From an uncultured Gemmataceae bacterium (GTDB lineage Bacteria; Planctomycetota; Planctomycetia; Gemmatales; Gemmataceae), in contig CAVVPN010000012.1 in the NCBI GenBank assembly GCA_963750165.1, forward strand, positions 864,001-928,000: a stretch of 64,000 bases of DNA, given 5' to 3'. The notes beneath the pieces are model-generated. The model did not search any database, had not been told where the DNA came from, and worked only from the letters and a program-made list of their open reading frames with translations. Made by a program: the position numbers and the translations under genes. This document shows, in pieces, positions 45,091 through 55,898 of this stretch (its first letter is position 1; every line of letters begins with the position of its first letter).

Positions 45091-46341
45091 TCACACCGCC
45101 TGATACCCCTTCGCCGTCTTCTCCTTGACCAGCCTGTCCGCCTGCTCCGCCGCCGCCTTCGCGCTGACGAGGTACTGCGTGCTGCTCTGCCCCGCGCTGC
45201 CGATGCGGCCGTAGCGCACCGTCACCTCACTGCCCTGCACCGACACTTCCCAGAACTTGTGCGCCGCCCCCTCCGACAGCTCGAACCGCCGCACCGCGGC
45301 CGGGGGCGCTGGCGGGGCGGCCGGCGCCGGCTGCGGCGCCTCCGCGCGGACGCCGATGAACGACGGGAAGCGCGGCACTCCGCCTTCGGACAATTCCTGA
45401 TAGCGGAACGTGATCGTGCTGCCGACCGGCGGCGGCTGCTGGCGCTCCGCGTCGGAAAAGCCGGTGCCCACGGAGAAGCGCGTGCCGTCCGCCAGTTCCA
45501 CGAACAGCGCCCCCAGCCGGCCCTTGTGCTTGCCCGCCCCCTCCAGGTGTTGCAACACTCGCGCCTCCGCGTCGTGGAAGCGCTTGACCTTCAGCAGCGT
45601 GGACGAGCGGCCGCTCTCGTACTTCGAGCCGGGCCGGCGCATCATCAGCCCTTCCGCCCCCAGCGCCTCCAGCCGCTCCAGCTCCGCCCGCAGGTGGTCG
45701 ATGCCGTGACAGCGCTGCTGCTCATGGGCCAGGGCGTACATGGCCTTGCTGCCCGTGAGGCACTCGCGCACAAACTCCTGTCGTGCCTCGAACGCCTTCT
45801 CCAACTTCGGCGCGTCGAAGACGACGTAACGCACCTGCTTCCAGAGGTCGGTCTTGTCCTGGCGGCGCACGAGGCCCGAAGTCTTGTTGAATTGCTTGCG
45901 GCCAATCCACAGTTCACCGTCCAGCGGTTCGGACGGTAGCCCGATAGTGAACCAGTCCGGTACGTGCCATTGGTTGCCCTGCCGCGACCAGAAATGTTGG
46001 CCGTCCCAGAACGCCCGCACGCCATCCAGCTTTTCGCTCAGCCACCAGCCCGTCGGGTCGAGGACGCAGTCCCACGTCTCGGCCAGCAGCAGCGGCGGTG
46101 CGCCGGCTCCCTTGGCGGGCGACTCGGGCTTGGGCGGCAGCGGAGCGCCGAGGCGGGCCTGCTCCGCTTCCTCGCCGCGGAACTGACGCAGGTGCTTGCA
46201 GGTGCGGCGCTCGATCGGCACCGACTGGTTGCGCCACGCCGGGCAGCTGCACGAGTAGACGCCGCCCACGTTTTTGAGGACGTACGGCTTGACACCGGAG
46301 CCCTGGATTTCTGCCGTCTGGCCGTCTTGCAGGTCCGCCAT
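45091..46341 (-). CDS. ATP-dependent DNA ligase with N-terminal SWIM Zn finger and C-terminal WGR domain
   Basis: YSCSCPAW...TCKH; SEKLDGVRA (adenylated Lys), LDGELW, EGLMMR, LLKVK and OB-fold VGTGFSD...PRFPSF; KFWEV...YGRIG...EKTAKGY. Confidence 0.92.
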   Translation of the reverse strand: MADLQDGQTAEIQGSGVKPYVLKNVGGVYSCSCPAWRNQSVPIERRTCKHLRQFRGEEAEQARLGAPLPPKPESPAKGAGAPPLLLAETWDCVLDPTGWWLSEKLDGVRAFWDGQHFWSRQGNQWHVPDWFTIGLPSEPLDGELWIGRKQFNKTSGLVRRQDKTDLWKQVRYVVFDAPKLEKAFEARQEFVRECLTGSKAMYALAHEQQRCHGIDHLRAELERLEALGAEGLMMRRPGSKYESGRSSTLLKVKRFHDAEARVLQHLEGAGKHKGRLGALFVELADGTRFSVGTGFSDAERQQPPPVGSTITFRYQELSEGGVPRFPSFIGVRAEAPQPAPAAPPAPPAAVRRFELSEGAAHKFWEVSVQGSEVTVRYGRIGSAGQSSTQYLVSAKAAAEQADRLVKEKTAKGYQAV

Positions 46342-46440
46342 GTGTCGCCCTCCGCGCAGTTGGGATGGGGAATGAGTGTATTGATTGAAAGAAACTGTAC
46401 ACGGTGGCACGGCGACGGCCAAGGTGAGTAGCCGCCCCGC

Positions 46441-46562: not shown

Positions 46563-47774
46563 ATGACTGAGGCTGTTACGTCACCCCCGCGGCCCCTCGT
46601 GGACCGCCCCGCGACCGTTCTGCTGATCGATGACCAGGCCATCGTCGGCGAACAGGTACGCCAGATGCTGGCCGGTGAACCGGACCTGGTCTTCCACTTC
46701 TGCCAGGAGCCTGCGAAGGCCATCGCCGTCGCCAACCAGGTGCAGCCAACCGTGATCCTGCAGGACCTGGTCATGCCGGACATCGACGGCCTGTTGCTGG
46801 TGAAATTCTTCCGCGCCAACCCGGCGACCAAGGCGACGCCGATGATCGTCCTGTCGAGCAAGGAGGAGCCGGTCATCAAGGCCCGCGCCTTCGCCCAGGG
46901 CGCCAACGACTACCTGGTGAAACTGCCGGACAAGCTCGAACTGGTCGCGCGCATCCGCTACCACTCGCGCAGCTACCTGAACCTGCTGGAGCGCAACGAA
47001 GCCTACCGCCAGCTGCAGGAGAGCGAGCGCCGCATGGCCGAGGAGATCGCCCAGGCGGCCCGCTACGTGCAGTCGCTGCTGCCGGCGAAGCTCACCGGCA
47101 CGCCGGCCATCGACTGGAAGTACGTGCCGAGCACCGACCTGGCCGGCGACATGTTCGGCTACCACTGGCTGGACCCGGACCACCTGGCGCTGTACCTGCT
47201 CGACGTGAGCGGTCACGGCGTCGGCTCGTCGCTGCTGGCGGTGTCCGCGGCCAACGTGCTCGCCGCCCAGTCGCTGCCGCACACCGACTTCCGCGACCCC
47301 GCCCAGGTGCTCAGCCGACTCAACGACGTCTTCCAGATGGAGAAGCAGAACGGCAAGTATTTCACGATCTGGTATGGCGTCTATCACCAGAAGGACCGCA
47401 CGCTGGCCTACGGGAACGCCGGCCACCCGCCCGCCCTGCTCTACCAGGGAGCCGACGCCGCCAGCACCGGCCTGCATCAGCTGGACGCCCTGGACCCGAT
47501 GGTCGGCATGCTGCCGCCGGACGTGCCGTTCGAGAGCCGCACCGTTCCCCTGGAGCCGCACGCTCGCCTGCTCATCTACAGCGACGGCGTCTTCGAGGTC
47601 GAGAAGCCCGACGGCTCCATGTGGGCGCTGTCGGAGTTCCTCACGTTCATGACCGACTTCCCGCTGGAAGGCGAGCCCGTCCCCGAGCGTCTGCACCGCC
47701 ATGTCCGCGAACTGGGCCGCTCCGACACCCTGGCCGACGATTTCTCGCTCATCGATGTGCGCTTCGGACCCTGA
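46563..47774 (+). CDS. WspR-like receiver domain fused to PP2C/SpoIIE (RsbU-like) phosphatase
   Basis: [46 protein letters not shown]2C: AGDMFGY, LDVSGHG, NAGHPP, YSDGVFE, ADDFSL. Confidence 0.9.
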
Positions 47775-47917
47775 CGGTAAGTGGGGATGTGCCAGAGACG
47801 CAAGCCCGGCCTGGGACTCCGCGGCGGACGACGGCCGCCAACGTCTGGCGTCTGGCAAGGCGGAAGATTTATACTGCAAGGATGATTCGCGAACCCGGCC
47901 CGTGGGAGGCTGTCTTG

Positions 47918-49561
47918 ATGCGCTTCAATAACGTCTCGATCCGGACCAAGTTATTCGGCAAGGTGGTCGTGGTCACGGCCGGGCTGGCGACCATTCTGGG
48001 GCTGGCCCTGTGGATCACGTCCACCTACCAGGTGGGCGGGCCGGTGTACAAGCGCATTCTCCAGGCCAACGAGCTGTCGCCGGACCTGACGCCCGCGACC
48101 CTGGCGATCCCGCGCATCTTCATGACCCTGCAGATTCTGGCGGAAGCCGACGAACTCCCGGAAATCCAGCGGCAGATCGACAGCCTGCGCAGCATGGAAC
48201 TGGAGTACCGCCGGCGCTTCGACTACTGGCGGCGGGAGTTGCCGAGCGGACCGATCCGGGACGGGCTGGAGCGCGAAACCGACCCGCCTGTCCGGGAAGT
48301 GTTCCGCATCGCCCGTGAGGACTTTTTACCCCTGGTCAACAAGAAGGACCGGGTCGGGGCGACCAAGGTTTTGAAGGAGAAGATCACGCCACGCTACCAG
48401 GAGCACCTGAAGGCGGCGGAACGGCTGCTGGACCTCATTAACAAGGACACCGCCCAGCGCGAGGCGGAGGTGCTGGCGGCCACGGCGTCCGCCCAGTGGA
48501 TCATGCTGGGCGTGGGCCTGCTGGTGCTCGGGCTCGCGGTGACCCTCAACGTGCTCATCGCCCGCAGCATCCTGCGCTCGACCGGCGTGCTCACCCATCG
48601 GATCGACGAGATGGCCGGCGGCGCCGGCGACCTGACCGCTCGGGTCCAGCTGGACACTCACGATGAGATCGGCCGCCTGGCCGACGGCATCAACGCCGTG
48701 ATCGAACGGCTGCACACGATGGTCGCCAAGATCCGCGAGGCGAGCCTGCAGCTGCTGTCCACGGCCTCGGAGATCGCGGCCACGGCCCGGCAACAGGAGG
48801 GCACGGCCCAGGGCCTCAGCGCCTCGACGACCGAGGTGGCGGCCGCGGTGCGCGAAATCTCAGCCACGAGCAAGGAACTGTCCGGTACGATGGAGCAGGT
48901 GTACGACAGCGCCAGCCAGGCCGCGACGCTGGCCACCGGGGGCCGGACGCAGCTGGGCGCCATGGAGGCGGCGATGCAGCAGCTGGTGCAATCGACCGCA
49001 TCGATCTCGGCCAAGCTGGCGACCATCCGCGAGAAGGCGGACAACATCAACCTGGTAGTGACCACCATCACCAAGGTGGCGGACCAGACGAACCTGCTGT
49101 CGATCAACGCCGCCATCGAGGCGGAGAAGGCGGGCGAGTACGGCCGCGGCTTCCTGGTGGTGGCGCGCGAGATTCGCCGGCTGGCGGACCAGACGGCGGT
49201 GGCGACGCTGGACATCGACAACATGGTGCGGCTGATGCAGGACGCGGTCAGTGCCGGCGTCATGCAGATGGACAAGTTCGGCGAGGAGGTGCGTGCCGGC
49301 GTGGGCCGCATCGCCCAGATCAACGGCGCCACCGGGCAGATCATCGAGCAGGTCGAGGGGCTGCGCGGCCGCTTCCAGCAGGTTAACGAGGGCATGCGCA
49401 ACCAGTCCACGGGAGCGCAGCAGATCAACGAGGCGATGATGCAGATCGCCCAGGGCACGCAGCAGACGCTGGCGGCGCTGGAAGAGTTCAACCGCGCCAC
49501 CGCCCACCTGCGCGCCGCGGTCGAGGGGCTGAACAAGGAGGTCGCGCAGTTCAAGGTGTGA
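47918..49561 (+). CDS. wspA: Methyl-accepting chemotaxis protein, WspA-like
   Basis: TM-periplasmic-TM-HAMP, then [43 protein letters not shown]. Confidence 0.9.
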
Positions 49562-49562
49562 C

Positions 49563-49619
49563 TTTCTGCCGCTTGCGGCTTAGCGCTCCGGAAGTGCGCT
49601 AAGCCGCTAGCGGCAGAAA
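49563..49619. repeat. Palindrome family C (GCCGCTTGCGGCTTAGCG...CGCTAAGCCGC)
   Basis: Inverted repeat; fragments at 1441, 36470 and 61579. Confidence 0.7.
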
Positions 49620-49642
49620 AACCAGAACCCACGGGGTTTCCC

Positions 49643-50101
49643 ATGCAGGCGCTCGCATTCCAGGTCGGCGCGGACCAGGTGGCGCTCGACGTCCGCGCCG
49701 TCGTGGAGGTGGTGCCGCGCGTGCGGCTGCGGCAGCCGGCCGGCGGGCCGCCGTGGCTCGCGGGGCTGTTCGTCTACCGCGGTCAGGTGGTGCCGGTCCT
49801 CGACCTGTTCCGCCTGGTCGGCGCCGGCGAGTGCCCGGCCGACCTGAGCAGTCGCATCATTCTCGTGAACGCGCCCGGCGGCGCTCCCGACCGCTACCTC
49901 GGGTTGCTCGCGGCTGGCGTCGCCGACCTCCGCAGCGTTCCGGACGTGAGGCCGCCGGTGGATCTGGCACAACCGGGCCGGCCCAGCCTCGGGCCGCTGC
50001 TGGCCGACGGTAGCGATGTGCTGCGGCTGCTGGACCTGAGCGGCCTGGTGCCCGGGGAGCTTGGCCGGTTGGCCCTGGCGGCCGCGGAGGCAGACCGATG
50101 A
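49643..50101 (+). CDS. wspB: CheW, WspB-like
   Basis: VVEVVP, PPWLAGLFVYRGQVVPVLDL and SSRIILV. Confidence 0.88.
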   Translation: MQALAFQVGADQVALDVRAVVEVVPRVRLRQPAGGPPWLAGLFVYRGQVVPVLDLFRLVGAGECPADLSSRIILVNAPGGAPDRYLGLLAAGVADLRSVPDVRPPVDLAQPGRPSLGPLLADGSDVLRLLDLSGLVPGELGRLALAAAEADR

Positions 50102-51357
50102 GCGCGGACGCCGTCGCTGATTTGCTGCGGGAACGGCTCGGCCTGGACCCCGACACCCTCGGCGCCGGTGTTATCCCCGCCGCGGTGCGGACGCGCATGG
50201 CCGCCCTGAGTGTGACCGACCCGGCGGCGTACGCGCAGCAAGCGCGGGCAGCGGCGCAGGAATATCAACGACTCGTGGACACAATCGTCGTGCCGGAGAG
50301 CTGGTTTTTCCGCGGCGGCACACTGTTCACGCACCTGGCCGACCACGTCAGCCGCGCCGCCCAGGCGCGGGGTGCTCCGGTGCGCGTGCTGTGCGTCCCG
50401 TGCGCCGCCGGACAGGAACCGTACTCCCTGGCGCTGGCGCTGCAGGAACATAACGTGCCCGCAACGGCGTACCACATCGAGGGCGTGGATGTCAGTCCGC
50501 GGCTGGTCGAGCAGGCCCGCGCCGGCATCTACGGCCCCTTCTCATTCCGCGAAGTGGAGCCGGCGCTGCAGCGCCGCCTCTTCCGGCCGGCCGCGAACGA
50601 CCAGTGGCAATTGCTGCCGGCGGTGCGCAGCCGGGTCTGCTTTCGCGTCGGTAACGCCATTGATCCGCACTTGTTGTTCGGCGAGCCGCCCTTCGACCTG
50701 ATCTTTTGCCGCAATTTGCTGATCTACCTGCACCCGGCGGCGCGGCGGCAAGTGCTGGACAATCTGGACCGACTGCTAGCCCCCGACGGCCTGCTCTGCA
50801 TCGGTCACGCGGAGCCGCTGGCGCAGTACGACGCCCGCTTCGCCGCCACGGGGCCGCGCGAGTTTTTCCTGTACCGGCGGGCCGGCGTGGCGGAGCGACC
50901 CGAGTCTGCCGTCCCGGCGAGCGGGGGGCGTCAGCGACTGGAGACGGGCCACACGTTGGAGCCCGAGTGCGCCCGTCCGAGCCCGAGCGCTAGCGAGGGG
51001 CCCCGCGCTGACGCTCGGGCTCGGATCGGCCCTTCAACTGCCGAATCTCCTGTCGAGCCGGCCGACGCCCGCCAGTTGGCCGACGCCGGCCGGCTCGACG
51101 AGGCCCTGCGCCTGTGCCGCGCCCAGCTCGACAGCGGCGCGCCGACGGCCGCGCTGTACAGCCTGCTCGGCGTGATTCACCAGGCACGGCACGAGGACGC
51201 CGACGCGGAAGCCGCGTTCCGCAAGGCCCTGTACCTGGAGCCTGAGCATTCGGAAGCACTGTTGCACCTGTCGCTGTTACACCAGCAGCGCGGCGACACG
51301 GCCCAGGCGGATCGGTTACGGCAGCGACTGCGCCGATCCGCGGGAGGCGACTCATGA
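50098..51357 (+). CDS. wspC: CheR methyltransferase with C-terminal TPR, WspC-like
   Basis: VPESWFFR, PCAAGQEPYS, DLIFCRNLLIY and GHAE; TPR FRKALYLEP.H.EALLHL. Confidence 0.9.
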   Translation: MSADAVADLLRERLGLDPDTLGAGVIPAAVRTRMAALSVTDPAAYAQQARAAAQEYQRLVDTIVVPESWFFRGGTLFTHLADHVSRAAQARGAPVRVLCVPCAAGQEPYSLALALQEHNVPATAYHIEGVDVSPRLVEQARAGIYGPFSFREVEPALQRRLFRPAANDQWQLLPAVRSRVCFRVGNAIDPHLLFGEPPFDLIFCRNLLIYLHPAARRQVLDNLDRLLAPDGLLCIGHAEPLAQYDARFAATGPREFFLYRRAGVAERPESAVPASGGRQRLETGHTLEPECARPSPSASEGPRADARARIGPSTAESPVEPADARQLADAGRLDEALRLCRAQLDSGAPTAALYSLLGVIHQARHEDADAEAAFRKALYLEPEHSEALLHLSLLHQQRGDTAQADRLRQRLRRSAGGDS

Positions 51358-52028
51358 ATGTTGCCCTGCCCGTCGCCCCGACCACGATGGACTGCTGGAA
51401 CCGCATCGGCGTGCGCGGCGACCGCTCCTGCCCGGAGTTGGCGAAGGTCGTGCATTGCCACAACTGCCCGGTGTTCGCCACCGCCGGCCGCAATTTTCTC
51501 AACGCGCCGGCGCCGGCGGGCTACCTGGAGGAGTGGACCGCCCGATTGGCGGCGCCGCCGGAGGACACGGCCACTGACCTGCAGAGTGTGCTGATTTTCC
51601 GCATTGGCGAGGAGTGGCTGGCGCTGCCGGTCGAGGTCCTCACGGAGGTCACGCCCTGGCGGACGCCGCACCGTGTACCGCACCGCGGCGGCCTGCTGGC
51701 CGGCCTCGTCAACCTCCGCGGCGAGCTGCACCTGTGCGTCCTGCTGGATCAGTTGCTCGGCATCCGCAGCGACCGCACCCAGGCGGCCGGACCGGAGGCG
51801 GCGGGGCGGCTGCTGGTCGTGGTGTGGCGGCAGCAACGCTGGGTGTTCCCGGTCGATGCCGTGGACCAGGTACACCGCTTTTCACGGGCCAATCTAACGC
51901 CGGCGCCGGCGACCGTGGCCCGGTCGCACCATCGGTTGTCGCAGGGCGTGTTTCCGTGGGACGGCCGGTCGATCGGCCTGCTGGACCCGGAGCGGTTGTT
52001 TCACGGCCTGGAGGGGAAGCTGCGATGA
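51354..52028 (+). CDS. wspD: CheW with N-terminal Cys motif, WspD-like
   Basis: DCWNRIGVRGDRSCPEL...HCHNCPVF, LIFRIGEEWLALP and GLVNLRGEL. Confidence 0.9.
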   Translation: MNVALPVAPTTMDCWNRIGVRGDRSCPELAKVVHCHNCPVFATAGRNFLNAPAPAGYLEEWTARLAAPPEDTATDLQSVLIFRIGEEWLALPVEVLTEVTPWRTPHRVPHRGGLLAGLVNLRGELHLCVLLDQLLGIRSDRTQAAGPEAAGRLLVVVWRQQRWVFPVDAVDQVHRFSRANLTPAPATVARSHHRLSQGVFPWDGRSIGLLDPERLFHGLEGKLR

Positions 52029-54766
52029 GCGGCGCGGAGGTATCGCTGTTCCGCCTGTTCCGGGAGGAGGTCGCGGCCCACACGGCGACGCTGAGCGCCG
52101 GCCTGGTGGAGCTGGAGGCTGACGCCGCCAACCCGCAGCGCATCGAGCCGCTGATGCGGGCCGCTCACTCGCTCAAGGGGGCCGCCCGCATCGTCAACAT
52201 CGACCCGGCCGTGCGCCTGGCCCACGCCCTGGAGGACGCGCTCGTCGCCGCCCAGGAGGGCCACGTCCGCCTCGAACCCGCGGACATTGACCAGTGCCTG
52301 CGGGCCGCCGACCTGCTGGCCACCCTGAGCCAGATCGACGAGGACGCCGTGCCCACCTGGTCCGCCGAACACCAGGCGCGAGTGGAGCAACTCGCCGAGG
52401 TATTTCGCGGCATTCAGCAGGGCCAGCCGACGGCCACCGCGCCGGCGGTCGCTCCCACGAACGGGGCCGCCGCGCCGGCCGCGGAGCCGCGCGGCCTGGT
52501 CTTCACCGAGGAACCGGCGCCCGCCGCGGACGATGATTCGATGCTGGGCCTGTACCGCGAAGAGGTGCGCGTTCACGCCGCGGTTCTGAGCGATGGCCTG
52601 CGCCGCCTGGCCGCGGGACCGCTGCCGGCGGCGGACGTGGACGCCCTGATCCACGCGGCCCACACGCTGAACGGCGGCGCCCGGCTGCTCGGGCTGGAGC
52701 CGGCAGCCCAGGTGTGCCAGGCGTTGAAGCAGGCGCTCACCGCCATCCGCGACGGGGCGCTGCGCCTCGGGCCGGCGGAACTGGATGTCTGCGGTCGGGC
52801 GCTGGCGTTTCTGACGGGGCTGCAGCAGGTCAACGAGGAGACGCTGCCGGAGTGGACCGCCAGCCAGGGCGCGACCGTAACGGAACTGCGGCAGGCGCTC
52901 GACGGGTTGCCGCGGAGTCCGGTCACTGGACCCGTAGTGCAGGCGGCCCGCCTGCACAGCGATGGTGCAGGCGGGCCGCCTGCACCACGGGAAGCGGCGC
53001 CCGCAGCGAAGGAAAAAGACACGGCCCCGGAAGACGCCGTGGTCCGCGTGACGGCGCTGAGCCTGAACCGCCTGATGAGCCTGGCCGGCGAATCGCTGGT
53101 GCAGGCCCGCTGGCTGGCCCCGTTCTCGACGGCGCTGCTGAAACTGAAGAAACACCAGGACCACCTGCGCGGCCTGCTCAACGCCATCGCCCAGGCGCTG
53201 CCGCCCAGTCGCGACGGCGACGAGCTGCCCGGCCTGGTGGCGGAGGCGCGGCGGCTGGCGGACCACTGCCGGCAGGTGCTCGGCGAACGCACCGGCGAGT
53301 TCGATGACCACGCCAGCCGGGCGGAGGACCTGAACACCCGGCTGTACCGTGAGGTCATCAGCAGCCGTATGCGGCCGTTCGCCGACGGCGCCCACGGCTT
53401 CCCGCGCCTGGTCCGCGACCTGGCCCGCAGCCTCGGCCGCAAGGCCCGCCTGGAAATTGACGGGGCCGACACGCCGGTGGACCGCGACATCCTGGAAAAA
53501 CTGGACGCGCCGTTGAACCACCTGCTGCGCAACGCTGTGGATCACGCCATCGAGTCGCCGGAACTGCGCCGCGCCGCCGGCAAACCCGAGGCTGGGCTGA
53601 TCCGCGTCGAGGCCCGCCACCGCGCCGGCATGTTGGCGATCACCGTCAGCGACGACGGCCGCGGCATCAACGTGGAATCCGTGCGCCGCAAGGTGGTGGA
53701 CCGCGGCCTGGCCACGGCGGCCATGGCGCAGTCGCTGTCCGAGGTGGAGTTGCTGGAGTTCCTGTTCCTGCCCGGCTTCTCGACGGCGACGGCGGTGACG
53801 GAGGTGTCGGGCCGCGGCGTCGGCCTGGACGTGGTGCTGACCGCGGCGCGAGCGGTGGGCGGTTCGGCCCGCGTTACGACACACCTGGGCCGCGGCACCG
53901 CGTTCCACCTGCAGCTGCCGATCACGCTGTCGGTGCTGCGGGCGGTGCTGGTGGAGATCGCCGGCGAGGTCTACGCCTTCCCGCACAACCGCATCGAGCG
54001 CATCCTGCGCGTGCCGCGCGCGGAGGTGCGCTCACTGGAGAATCGGCAATACCTCGTGCTGGACGGGCTCAACGTCGGCCTGGTGCTGGCGGCGCAGGTG
54101 CTGGACCTGCCGGCGGCGCCGCCGGCCGACGAGGACGTGTGCGTCGTGCTGCTGGGCGACGGCACCGGGGTGTACGGCCTGATCGTTGAGGCGTTTCGCG
54201 GTGAGCAGGACCTGGTGGTGCGGCCGCTGGACGCACGGCTCGGCAAGGTGCCCAACCTCAGCGCCGCCGCCATCCTGGACGACGGCTCGCCGGTGCTGAT
54301 CGTGGACACCGAGGACCTGATTCGCTCGGCAGACCGCTTCATTCAGGAGCGGACGCTGCGCCGCTACGAGCCGGTGGCGAAGGCGGAGCGGCCGCGCAAG
54401 CGCGTGCTGGTGGTGGACGACTCGATCACGGTGCGTGAGGTGGAGCGGCAGCTGCTACGGCACCACGGCTACGAGGTAGCGCTGGCGGTGGATGGTCAGG
54501 AGGGTTGGAACGCCGTGCGCTCCGAGCCGTTCGACCTGGTGGTCAGCGACGTGGACATGCCGCGCATGAACGGCTTCGAACTGGTGCGGGCAGTGCGCCG
54601 CGACCCGGCGCTGCGGCAACTGCCGGTGATTATCGTCTCGTACAAGGACCGCGAGGAGGACCGGCTGAAAGGCCTGGACGCCGGCGCGAATTATTACTTA
54701 ACCAAGAGCAGCTTTCATGACGAGACGTTTCTGCGGGCGGTGGCGGATTTGATCGGTGAAGCGTAA
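52025..54766 (+). CDS. wspE: Hybrid CheA-REC kinase with two Hpt domains, WspE-like
   Basis: RAAHSLKGAA and HAAHTLNGGA; HLLRNAVDH, DDGRG, PGFST..SGRGVGLD; CheW domain; REC VDDSITVRE..DVDMPRMNG..YLTKSSFHD. Confidence 0.92.
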   Translation: MSGAEVSLFRLFREEVAAHTATLSAGLVELEADAANPQRIEPLMRAAHSLKGAARIVNIDPAVRLAHALEDALVAAQEGHVRLEPADIDQCLRAADLLATLSQIDEDAVPTWSAEHQARVEQLAEVFRGIQQGQPTATAPAVAPTNGAAAPAAEPRGLVFTEEPAPAADDDSMLGLYREEVRVHAAVLSDGLRRLAAGPLPAADVDALIHAAHTLNGGARLLGLEPAAQVCQALKQALTAIRDGALRLGPAELDVCGRALAFLTGLQQVNEETLPEWTASQGATVTELRQALDGLPRSPVTGPVVQAARLHSDGAGGPPAPREAAPAAKEKDTAPEDAVVRVTALSLNRLMSLAGESLVQARWLAPFSTALLKLKKHQDHLRGLLNAIAQALPPSRDGDELPGLVAEARRLADHCRQVLGERTGEFDDHASRAEDLNTRLYREVISSRMRPFADGAHGFPRLVRDLARSLGRKARLEIDGADTPVDRDILEKLDAPLNHLLRNAVDHAIESPELRRAAGKPEAGLIRVEARHRAGMLAITVSDDGRGINVESVRRKVVDRGLATAAMAQSLSEVELLEFLFLPGFSTATAVTEVSGRGVGLDVVLTAARAVGGSARVTTHLGRGTAFHLQLPITLSVLRAVLVEIAGEVYAFPHNRIERILRVPRAEVRSLENRQYLVLDGLNVGLVLAAQVLDLPAAPPADEDVCVVLLGDGTGVYGLIVEAFRGEQDLVVRPLDARLGKVPNLSAAAILDDGSPVLIVDTEDLIRSADRFIQERTLRRYEPVAKAERPRKRVLVVDDSITVREVERQLLRHHGYEVALAVDGQEGWNAVRSEPFDLVVSDVDMPRMNGFELVRAVRRDPALRQLPVIIVSYKDREEDRLKGLDAGANYYLTKSSFHDETFLRAVADLIGEA

Positions 54767-54769
54767 TAG

Positions 54770-54847
54770 AATTGCCAATTGACAATTGACAATTGCCAAT
54801 TGAAAAACATCGCAGGTGCTGTCTTTCAATTGGCAATTGGCAATTCC
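54770..54847. repeat. Heptamer tandem hairpin (CAATTGA/CAATTGC)n
   Basis: AATTGCCAATTGACAATTGACAATTGCCAATTGAAA / TTTCAATTGGCAATTGGCAATT between wspE and wspF. Confidence 0.88.
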
Positions 54848-54860
54848 CACGGAGTGGGTC

Positions 54861-55898
54861 ATGCGCGTGGGCATCGTCAACGATCTGGCCCTGGCCTGTG
54901 AGGTGCTGCGGCGGGCGGTGACCGCGGTGCCGGGCTACGCCGTCGCCTGGGTCGCGGTCAACGGCGCCGAGGCGGTGCGTCTGGCGCACGACGACCCGTC
55001 TGATGTCATTCTGATGGACCTCATCATGCCCGTGATGGACGGCGTCGAGGCCACGCGGCGCATCATCAGCGCCACGCCCTGCCCCATCCTGCTGGTCACG
55101 AGCAGCGTTCACGGCAACTTCAGCAAGGTCTACGAGGCGATGGGCCACGGCGCCCTCGACGCGGTGGACACGCCCACGCTCGGGCCGCAGGGGGCACTGG
55201 TCGGTGGCGACGGGCTGCTGACGCGGCTGGCCCGGCTGGAGCGCGAACAGGTTGCGCTACGATCCGCGGCGTCGGATCGGGCGCCCCCGACTCCCGGCCC
55301 CAGGCCGCCGGCTGGTAGGGCCACGCCAGCGCTGCTGGCCGTGGGGGCCTCAACCGGCGGCCCGGACGCCCTGGCGCGCGTCCTGGCGGCGCTGCCCGCG
55401 ACGCTGCCGGTAGCCGTGGTGCTCGTCCAGCACATCGGGGTCGGCTTCGCGCCCAGCCTGGCCCAGTGGCTTCAGGGCAAGACGGCCCTGCCGGTGCGCC
55501 TGGCCGCCACGGGCGAGGTGCCGCGTCCGGGCGTGATCCTGCTCGCCGCCACGGACGACCACCTCGTACTGCAGCCCGACGGCCGGCTGGCCTACACGCA
55601 CGAGCCGCGCGAAAATCCCTTCCGGCCCTCGGTGGATGTGTTCTTCCAGAGCCTGGCGCAGGGCTGGCCGCGCCCGGGGGTGGCGGTGCTGCTAACCGGC
55701 ATGGGCAGCGACGGCGGCGCGGGGCTGCTGCGGCTGCGTCAGGCCGGCTGGCTGACGCTGGCCCAGGACGAGGCCACCAGCGTGGTCTATGGCATGCCGA
55801 AGGCCGCCGCCGAACTCGGCGCCGCCTGCCTGACGCTGCCGCTGGACCGCATCGGCCCGGCCGCCGTCGGCCACCTGCAGGGCGCGCGCGGCGGCTGA
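54861..55898 (+). CDS. wspF: CheB methylesterase with REC domain, WspF-like
   Basis: MRVGIVND, ILMDLIMP, GASTGG, VQH, RPSVDVFF and TGMGSDG. Confidence 0.93.
   Translation: MRVGIVNDLALACEVLRRAVTAVPGYAVAWVAVNGAEAVRLAHDDPSDVILMDLIMPVMDGVEATRRIISATPCPILLVTSSVHGNFSKVYEAMGHGALDAVDTPTLGPQGALVGGDGLLTRLARLEREQVALRSAASDRAPPTPGPRPPAGRATPALLAVGASTGGPDALARVLAALPATLPVAVVLVQHIGVGFAPSLAQWLQGKTALPVRLAATGEVPRPGVILLAATDDHLVLQPDGRLAYTHEPRENPFRPSVDVFFQSLAQGWPRPGVAVLLTGMGSDGGAGLLRLRQAGWLTLAQDEATSVVYGMPKAAAELGAACLTLPLDRIGPAAVGHLQGARGG

Follow-up and report, generated by a model that had tools for sequence, protein, structure and literature searches.

A Wsp-type chemosensory gene cluster with a PP2C phosphatase output in an uncultured Gemmataceae bacterium

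What does a Wsp-type chemosensory system control when its output regulator carries a protein phosphatase domain where a GGDEF domain would be expected? The question is raised by seven co-oriented genes, all on the forward strand, at positions 46563-55898 of a 64,000-nucleotide stretch from an uncultured Gemmataceae bacterium (GCA_963750165.1, contig CAVVPN010000012.1, positions 864,001 to 928,000; hereafter the window). A Pfam scan places a REC-PP2C gene first and genes in the wspA-F order behind it, confirming the arrangement described in the initial annotation, which had been made from the sequence alone. The cluster is an intact Wsp-type system with a PP2C output, and by that output it is neither a WspR nor a WspH system. 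The regulator most likely works as a phosphatase of the RsbU type under the control of a chemoreceptor array.

The output regulator (46563-47774, +) consists of a WspR-type receiver (with D68), a 48-residue helix (residues 124-171), and a PP2C/SpoIIE phosphatase domain; the Pfam matches span residues 19-132 for REC and 205-401 for SpoIIE (E=1e-38). Residues 13-162 match the WspR structures 3bre (E=2.9e-58) and 3i5a (E=5.8e-56), and the nearest structure other than WspR is full-length Pseudomonas aeruginosa RssB (6e-27); PleD matches at 4e-14. The receiver together with the stalk, a feature defined for WspR (PMC2270323), has a median identity of 59% to the 69 GGDEF-type receivers compared, and in the receiver tree the WspR-type receivers cluster together, separate from the generic and RsbU-like ones. 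The likeness to WspR that had been noted from the sequence is borne out by both the structure matches and the tree. The regulator shares the receiver and stalk of WspR and has neither its GGDEF output nor, according to Pfam, the histidine kinase output domain of WspH. A profile scan of the C-terminus, as proposed in the initial annotation, matched PF07228 at 133.7 bits (cut-off 25) and no GGDEF family, and the domain has a PPM fold with the metal-binding Asp motifs of SpoIIE/RsbU-type phosphatases. These motifs had been called intact, and an alignment of 30 homologues shows no variation at the phosphatase residues D196, D214, H218, G219, S340-D341-G342, D392, and D393 or at the receiver residues D23, D24, D68, S98, and K120. 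The regulator falls outside the RssB equivalog of NCBIfam (99.3 bits, cut-off 700).

In the AlphaFold2 model (predicted local distance difference test, pLDDT, 93.3), the receiver and a PPM fold are joined by a single 48-residue helix, and Foldseek ranks P. aeruginosa RssB first (E=3e-27), followed by WspR, with SiaA and SpoIIE lower. The length of the helix is fixed: 164 of the 184 PP2C linkers measured are equal and 10 others are seven residues shorter. A homodimer model scored 0.63, compared with 0.00 for the best of three controls, on a scale whose mark 20 of 30 solved homodimers attain but just 1 of 23 monomers does; its runs share at least 59% of contacts at a pLDDT of at least 83. The predicted contacts, which involve the receiver, the parallel helices, and phosphatase residues 220-231, would form a crossed-helix dimer resembling the linker and alpha-1 arrangement of RsbU/RssB (PMC12143880), although this pass may stem from likeness to the solved RssB and WspR dimers. 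The same receiver is found elsewhere joined to a histidine kinase, a class III cyclase, or a GAF-HD domain. The PP2C output class offers natural chimeras for testing the proposal that coiled-coil linkers allow sensor modules to be exchanged among phosphatases, kinases, and cyclases (PMC12143880). Fusions to class III nucleotide cyclases and GAF-HD were observed at L172:2-1465, L246:1426-2919, and L082:1429-3240, and the REC-PP2C gene of L172 and of L316 is preceded in tandem by another receiver protein.

The six genes behind the regulator gene, all identified by Pfam, make up the rest of the system. Supported in addition by hydropathy and identity, the wspA-like chemoreceptor (HAMP and MCP; 47918-49561, +) has two membrane helices, a periplasmic helical domain, HAMP, and a signalling domain; it is 37% identical to the Crenobacter wsp receptor over residues 7-547, and its similarity to the Mesorhizobium receptor is confined to the signalling part. 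Next come a wspB-like CheW (49643-50101, +; 32-35% identity to the Mesorhizobium and Crenobacter wsp CheW), a wspC-like CheR-TPR methyltransferase (50098-51357, +; 36-38%), whose TPR match is weak and under the Pfam cut-off, and a wspD-like CheW with a Cys-rich N-terminus (51354-52028, +; 33-40%). The wspE-like CheA-REC hybrid kinase (52025-54766, +; 48%) has the order 2xHpt-HATPase-CheW-REC, and the wspF-like REC-CheB methylesterase (54861-55898, +; 51-52%) also scores above the cut-off of NCBIfam PRK12555. Motifs support the assignments from wspC to wspF, and every catalytic motif examined in CheA, CheB, and CheR is present. For cheB, the ATG at 54861 (MRVGIVND, as in homologues) is a more likely start than the GTG at 54816. 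The His is kept in both Hpt domains; a double Hpt was considered as a special trait and ruled out, as GGDEF clusters have it too. Overlaps of 4 bases join wspB-C, C-D, and D-E. The cluster shows the wspA-wspF synteny and co-orientation of Wsp-type (alternative cellular function, ACF) systems, together with a CheR-TPR protein, a CheA-REC hybrid, and a multidomain regulator without a stand-alone CheY. The identities of 32-52% exceed the 30% used in an earlier survey with P. fluorescens queries (PMC8552884), the references here being the Crenobacter and Mesorhizobium WspR-type clusters.

Is the phosphatase the cognate output of this array? It is conceivable that the REC-PP2C protein is a bystander or serves a second chemosensory system while the Wsp kinase signals elsewhere. 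The regulator gene is separated from wspA by 143 bases, a gap in which a promoter and terminator scan found nothing; a second che cluster, which includes a CheY-like gene standing alone and a receptor that looks soluble, lies at G000:C12:949000-959000; and some relatives carry a copy of the regulator beside a non-Wsp cheA. The genome, which is 93% complete, holds seven GGDEF matches, none with a WspR-type receiver and none inside the window, where the absence of a GGDEF gene had been noted. A true wspR elsewhere, which would have spoken for a different output, was not found in this 93% complete genome, nor was any second WspR-type receiver; the next-best receiver matches have about 30% identity. 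Among 151 sampled genomes of the window's taxonomic order, the receiver occurs in 68 and wspD in 64, all of them among the 68, so that the receiver is present in 64/64 wspD-positive vs 4/87 wspD-negative genomes. The match persists where the two genes are far apart (G424 and G492), whereas co-occurrence of adjacent genes would otherwise be trivial. Of 196 PP2C loci (duplicates included), 113 have enough flank, and at least three wsp genes are present in 99 of these. After deduplication at 97%, the REC-PP2C gene follows the wsp genes, the canonical position behind cheB, in 96 loci, precedes wspA in 34, and is divergent in 15, and 31 loci, many of them short, have no wsp neighbour. The wspH gene of Burkholderia has likewise moved to the 5' end (PMC8552884). 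With its WspR-type receiver, the regulator is thus very unlikely to be a bystander, and phosphotransfer from WspE to D68 is very probable.

We propose the following chain for the signal. By analogy with Wsp, the state of the receptor, tuned by CheR and CheB, would set the autophosphorylation of WspE, which would pass phosphate to D68 of the neighbouring receiver. We infer that phosphorylation activates the phosphatase, the receiver switching on PP2C via the predicted coiled-coil dimer. The active phosphatase would then remove the phosphate from a STAS protein, with an RsbW-type kinase working in opposition; that a STAS protein is the substrate appears probable. The dephosphorylated STAS protein would likely lead to the release of a sigma factor, which is the most likely end of the chain at roughly even confidence. 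Taken as a whole, the route from the Wsp array through the WspR-type receiver and PP2C to a switch of the STAS/RsbW kind and on to a sigma factor is the reading we favour, with an evenly balanced chance of being right. Such systems are candidates for the control of attachment or stress responses in planctomycetes and methanotrophs.

The case for a STAS/RsbW switch comes from related clusters. In wsp-linked loci that span 15 kb or more (95 PP2C loci, shorter or unlinked, and 3 GGDEF loci were dropped), STAS or RsbW genes are present in 26/81 PP2C loci vs 0/26 GGDEF loci, and in 17/43 vs 0/18 after clustering at 75%; the expected STAS background is about 1-5% per 20 kb. The phosphatase, STAS protein, and RsbW kinase are linked together in 15 of the 81. 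Because the STAS/RsbW profiles were partly seeded from PP2C loci, three checks were made: a permissive rescan of the GGDEF loci found no STAS, Pfam confirmed 35/35 of the STAS/RsbW candidates submitted, and profile-free clustering of neighbours returned STAS (20 lineages) and RsbW (16) as the first and second most recurrent families. The placement of these genes varies over 26 lineages, mostly adjoining the regulator or at the cluster edge. One of the nearest relatives, L206, shares the gene order of the window and has a STAS gene immediately upstream. In addition, five dual-output clusters (L294-L298, in the order of the Methylococcus record) have wspR (GGDEF) behind cheB and, at their opposite end, a divergent gene for REC-PP2C, and in four of them STAS follows the PP2C gene, not wspR. 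The linked STAS proteins belong to the Pfam STAS type, carry an SSAG-like Ser motif, and are accompanied by HATPase_c_2 kinases. STAS genes of the kind posited as partners in the initial annotation do occur beside related clusters, although not beside this one.

In the genome itself, about seven STAS and five RsbW-type proteins are encoded elsewhere, including an adjacent pair at C4:366882-367794, but they are unlinked to the window. Substrate candidates that keep the Ser motif are at G000:C4:367432-367794 (beside the RsbW gene), C3:1667993-1668385, and C11:2174961-2175548. REC-RsbW fusions occur inside or beside wsp clusters at L373:3801-4724 and L022:15095-16270, and an unlinked protein of similar architecture (24-28% identity), which may be the opposing kinase, is encoded at G000:C3:2767995-2768975.

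A number of observations weigh against the proposed route. No STAS or RsbW gene lies near the window's cluster, loci with the window's gene order have a partner in only 3 of 25 long cases (STAS in L206 and REC-RsbW in two), and the L206 STAS protein is without a clear orthologue in this genome (best 25%). When clustering is relaxed to 65%, the linkage falls to 3/11 PP2C vs 0/10 GGDEF loci (p=0.21), and on the tree the contrast between the two outputs amounts to a single independent pair. In six loci (L361, L366, L367, L188, L190, and L192), the WspR-type REC-PP2C gene is divergent from a non-Wsp cheA cluster, indicating that the regulator can leave the Wsp context. The route is predicted from sequence and structure models. 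Finally, profile-free clustering of neighbours found no sigma factor recurring beside PP2C clusters, and an extracytoplasmic function (ECF) sigma factor recurs in only three loci. Apart from these points, G427 and G510 carry a REC-PP2C copy beside a non-Wsp cheA in addition to the wsp-linked copy. The ECF sigma gene 4 kb upstream of the cluster was considered as a target and is uninformative, being one of 34 similar matches in the genome, and a HenR link for the phosphatase domain was not found in the portion of PMC13712970 available.

The lack of a recurrent sigma factor, which leaves the transcriptional output posited in the initial annotation a conjecture, suits an alternative in which the dephosphorylated STAS protein acts without one, for example, in the manner of SiaABCD, on a diguanylate cyclase or on an enzyme of the biofilm or envelope. 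The SiaA-SiaB-SiaC partner switch regulates the cyclase SiaD (PMC7647112; PMC9239204), and the PP2C domain of SiaA is among the fold matches of the regulator. This genome has GGDEF matches, and the dual clusters hold both outputs; if the STAS protein acted on a cyclase, the output could still be cyclic di-GMP (c-di-GMP). No GGDEF gene recurs beside STAS in PP2C-only clusters, however, and the combination of SSAG-like STAS and HATPase_c_2 proteins belongs to sigma-type switches (PMC13712970), so we consider this outcome rather improbable. The scarcity of STAS genes in loci with the window's gene order, where one occurs in only 1 of 25 long loci, bears on a further possibility: the phosphatase here might reverse Hanks-type Ser/Thr kinases, or act as an RssB-like proteolysis adaptor, with the STAS linkage restricted to other phyla. 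A Ser/Thr kinase cluster is present in 17 loci of 9 lineages, but planctomycete genomes are rich in Ser/Thr kinases, and this count may therefore be background. The top fold match, P. aeruginosa RssB, is both adaptor and phosphatase (PMC12143880). The PP2C domains of all Wsp-type regulators share a single subfamily with those linked to STAS (support 99), one that also includes cyanobacterial and membrane-bound phosphatases, and the identity to RssB is only about 25%. We regard this possibility as unlikely, and removal of phosphate from a STAS protein leading to sigma factor release remains the preferred reading.

How widespread is the phosphatase form? The initial annotation had called for a survey of wsp clusters for REC-PP2C, and many were found, in several bacterial phyla. 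With outputs typed for the best 30 hits only and a query biased towards PP2C forms, the receiver is present in 67 of 137 genomes of the window's family, where each of the 29 best hits retrieved as loci has PP2C. In its phylum, 19 of 401 genomes have the receiver (PP2C in 18 of 20 matches). PP2C also prevails in the order of the Methylococcus record (receiver in 36/151 genomes; PP2C in 29 of the best 30 loci) and in Acidobacteriota (5/251, all PP2C), and both outputs occur in the phylum of the Syntrophaceae record (18/301; 12 PP2C and 6 GGDEF among 19 matches). In the class of Crenobacter, the receiver is present in 65/401 genomes, and 27 of the best 30 loci are GGDEF. The receiver was also found in Chlamydiota and Verrucomicrobiota records. 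The PP2C class thus occurs in about half of the window's family and extends to at least four other phyla, and in the Methylococcus, Syntrophaceae, and Acidobacteriota records the REC-PP2C gene occupies the usual position of wspR.

GGDEF forms are basal in the receiver tree with long outgroups, whereas in the unrooted WspE tree the GGDEF systems are nested among PP2C systems; in the rooted WspE tree (without L334, a long branch), PP2C and GGDEF are sister groups with two PP2C rows basal. GGDEF systems lie on one side of a branch in the WspE trees (support 90-98), where a test of the alternative did not reject a PP2C clade (approximately unbiased test, p-AU 0.81; histidine kinase, dual, and unclassified rows left out). 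One record titled Alcaligenaceae (L029) has a receiver match equal to that of L031, a Gemmataceae record. It has the same neighbours as L031, falls among Gemmataceae, and is likely a mislabelled bin. PP2C and GGDEF Wsp systems have the look of old sister groups, with no direction of a swap fixed by the trees. An old split means that the phosphatase output is no rewiring peculiar to this organism, and the domain swap from GGDEF posited in the initial annotation is not borne out. A broader scenario, which we offer tentatively and hold to be less likely than the signalling route itself, is that Wsp split early, with a PP2C branch as old as the GGDEF branch or older, in which a surface- or envelope-sensing array, acting through STAS/RsbW and a sigma factor, would convert attachment or envelope stress into a programme of transcription in Gemmataceae and methanotrophs.

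As to the input, the surface or envelope sensing posited in the initial annotation gains no support from the receptor: its periplasmic domain has no Pfam match at E 0.1 and is 18% identical to a WspA-type four-helix bundle (4HB) domain; in relatives, 4HB matches are under the cut-off only. It may at best be a divergent four-helix bundle, and receptors of other PP2C clusters carry Cache domains. In P. aeruginosa, Wsp senses envelope stress and can sense surfaces without its periplasmic domain (PMC9170161), and a Wsp-like receptor of Halomonas is reported to bind purines (10.1101/2024.04.09.588698). Within the cluster, the wspA-wspB spacer holds a palindromic repeat (49569-49613), whose 18-mer has 66 exact occurrences in the genome, similar to repetitive extragenic palindromic (REP) elements, and the wspE-wspF spacer holds AT-rich CAATTG repeats (54770-54840) that are rare in the genome. 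An ATP-dependent DNA ligase that carries a fused WGR domain is encoded divergently from the cluster (45091-46422, -).

A 2021 survey described only WspR and WspH as Wsp outputs, and only in beta- and gammaproteobacteria, and its main text mentions neither a phosphatase nor Planctomycetes (PMC8552884). The PP2C systems would constitute a third output class. The surprise is tempered by the known variety of ACF outputs, by the chemosensory-linked partner switches of Shewanella, and by a 2012 table that lists, for Methylococcus capsulatus and for Desulfovibrio salexigens, a CheR-TPR cluster with a REC-Ser/Thr phosphatase (PMC3447774, Table S2); that paper states that an earlier classification has the same architectures. 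The two table rows share with the present cluster a CheR-TPR context with a REC-phosphatase, and the Methylococcus record L042 has the PP2C family there, but they give no WspR link, partners, range, or function, and the comparison with those two proteins is by description. Planctomycete WspA-F and a "WspR" have been annotated, with no phosphatase output noted in the accessible text (PMC6461901). The architecture had therefore been tabulated, and no characterisation was found in the literature searched; no study of a WspR-type REC-PP2C protein was found in full-text literature, a search whose scope excluded most subscription journals and other supplements.

Among known systems, RsbU and the P. 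aeruginosa RssB-RssC pair (3f7a, 3eq2) share with the regulator the REC-helix-PPM architecture, the top fold match, and the predicted dimer form (PMC12143880), but at about 25% identity; the receiver here is not RssB-type and is tied to a chemoreceptor array. The Che1-CrsR-CrsA system of Shewanella likewise links a chemosensory locus to a sigma-controlling partner switch, although Che1 is F7-type with CheY and CheD, and CrsR bears its own anti-sigma domain (PMC9855816). The c-di-GMP-independent WspH system of Burkholderia also places a WspR-like receiver on another output domain, encoded at the 5' end, but that output is a histidine kinase (PMC8552884). The Wsp system of Pseudomonas with WspR (REC-GGDEF) has the same wspA-F order, CheR-TPR protein, CheA-REC hybrid, and receiver with stalk; in the Planctomycetota host described here, by contrast, PP2C replaces GGDEF, the regulator gene stands at the 5' end, and the receptor has a divergent periplasmic domain.

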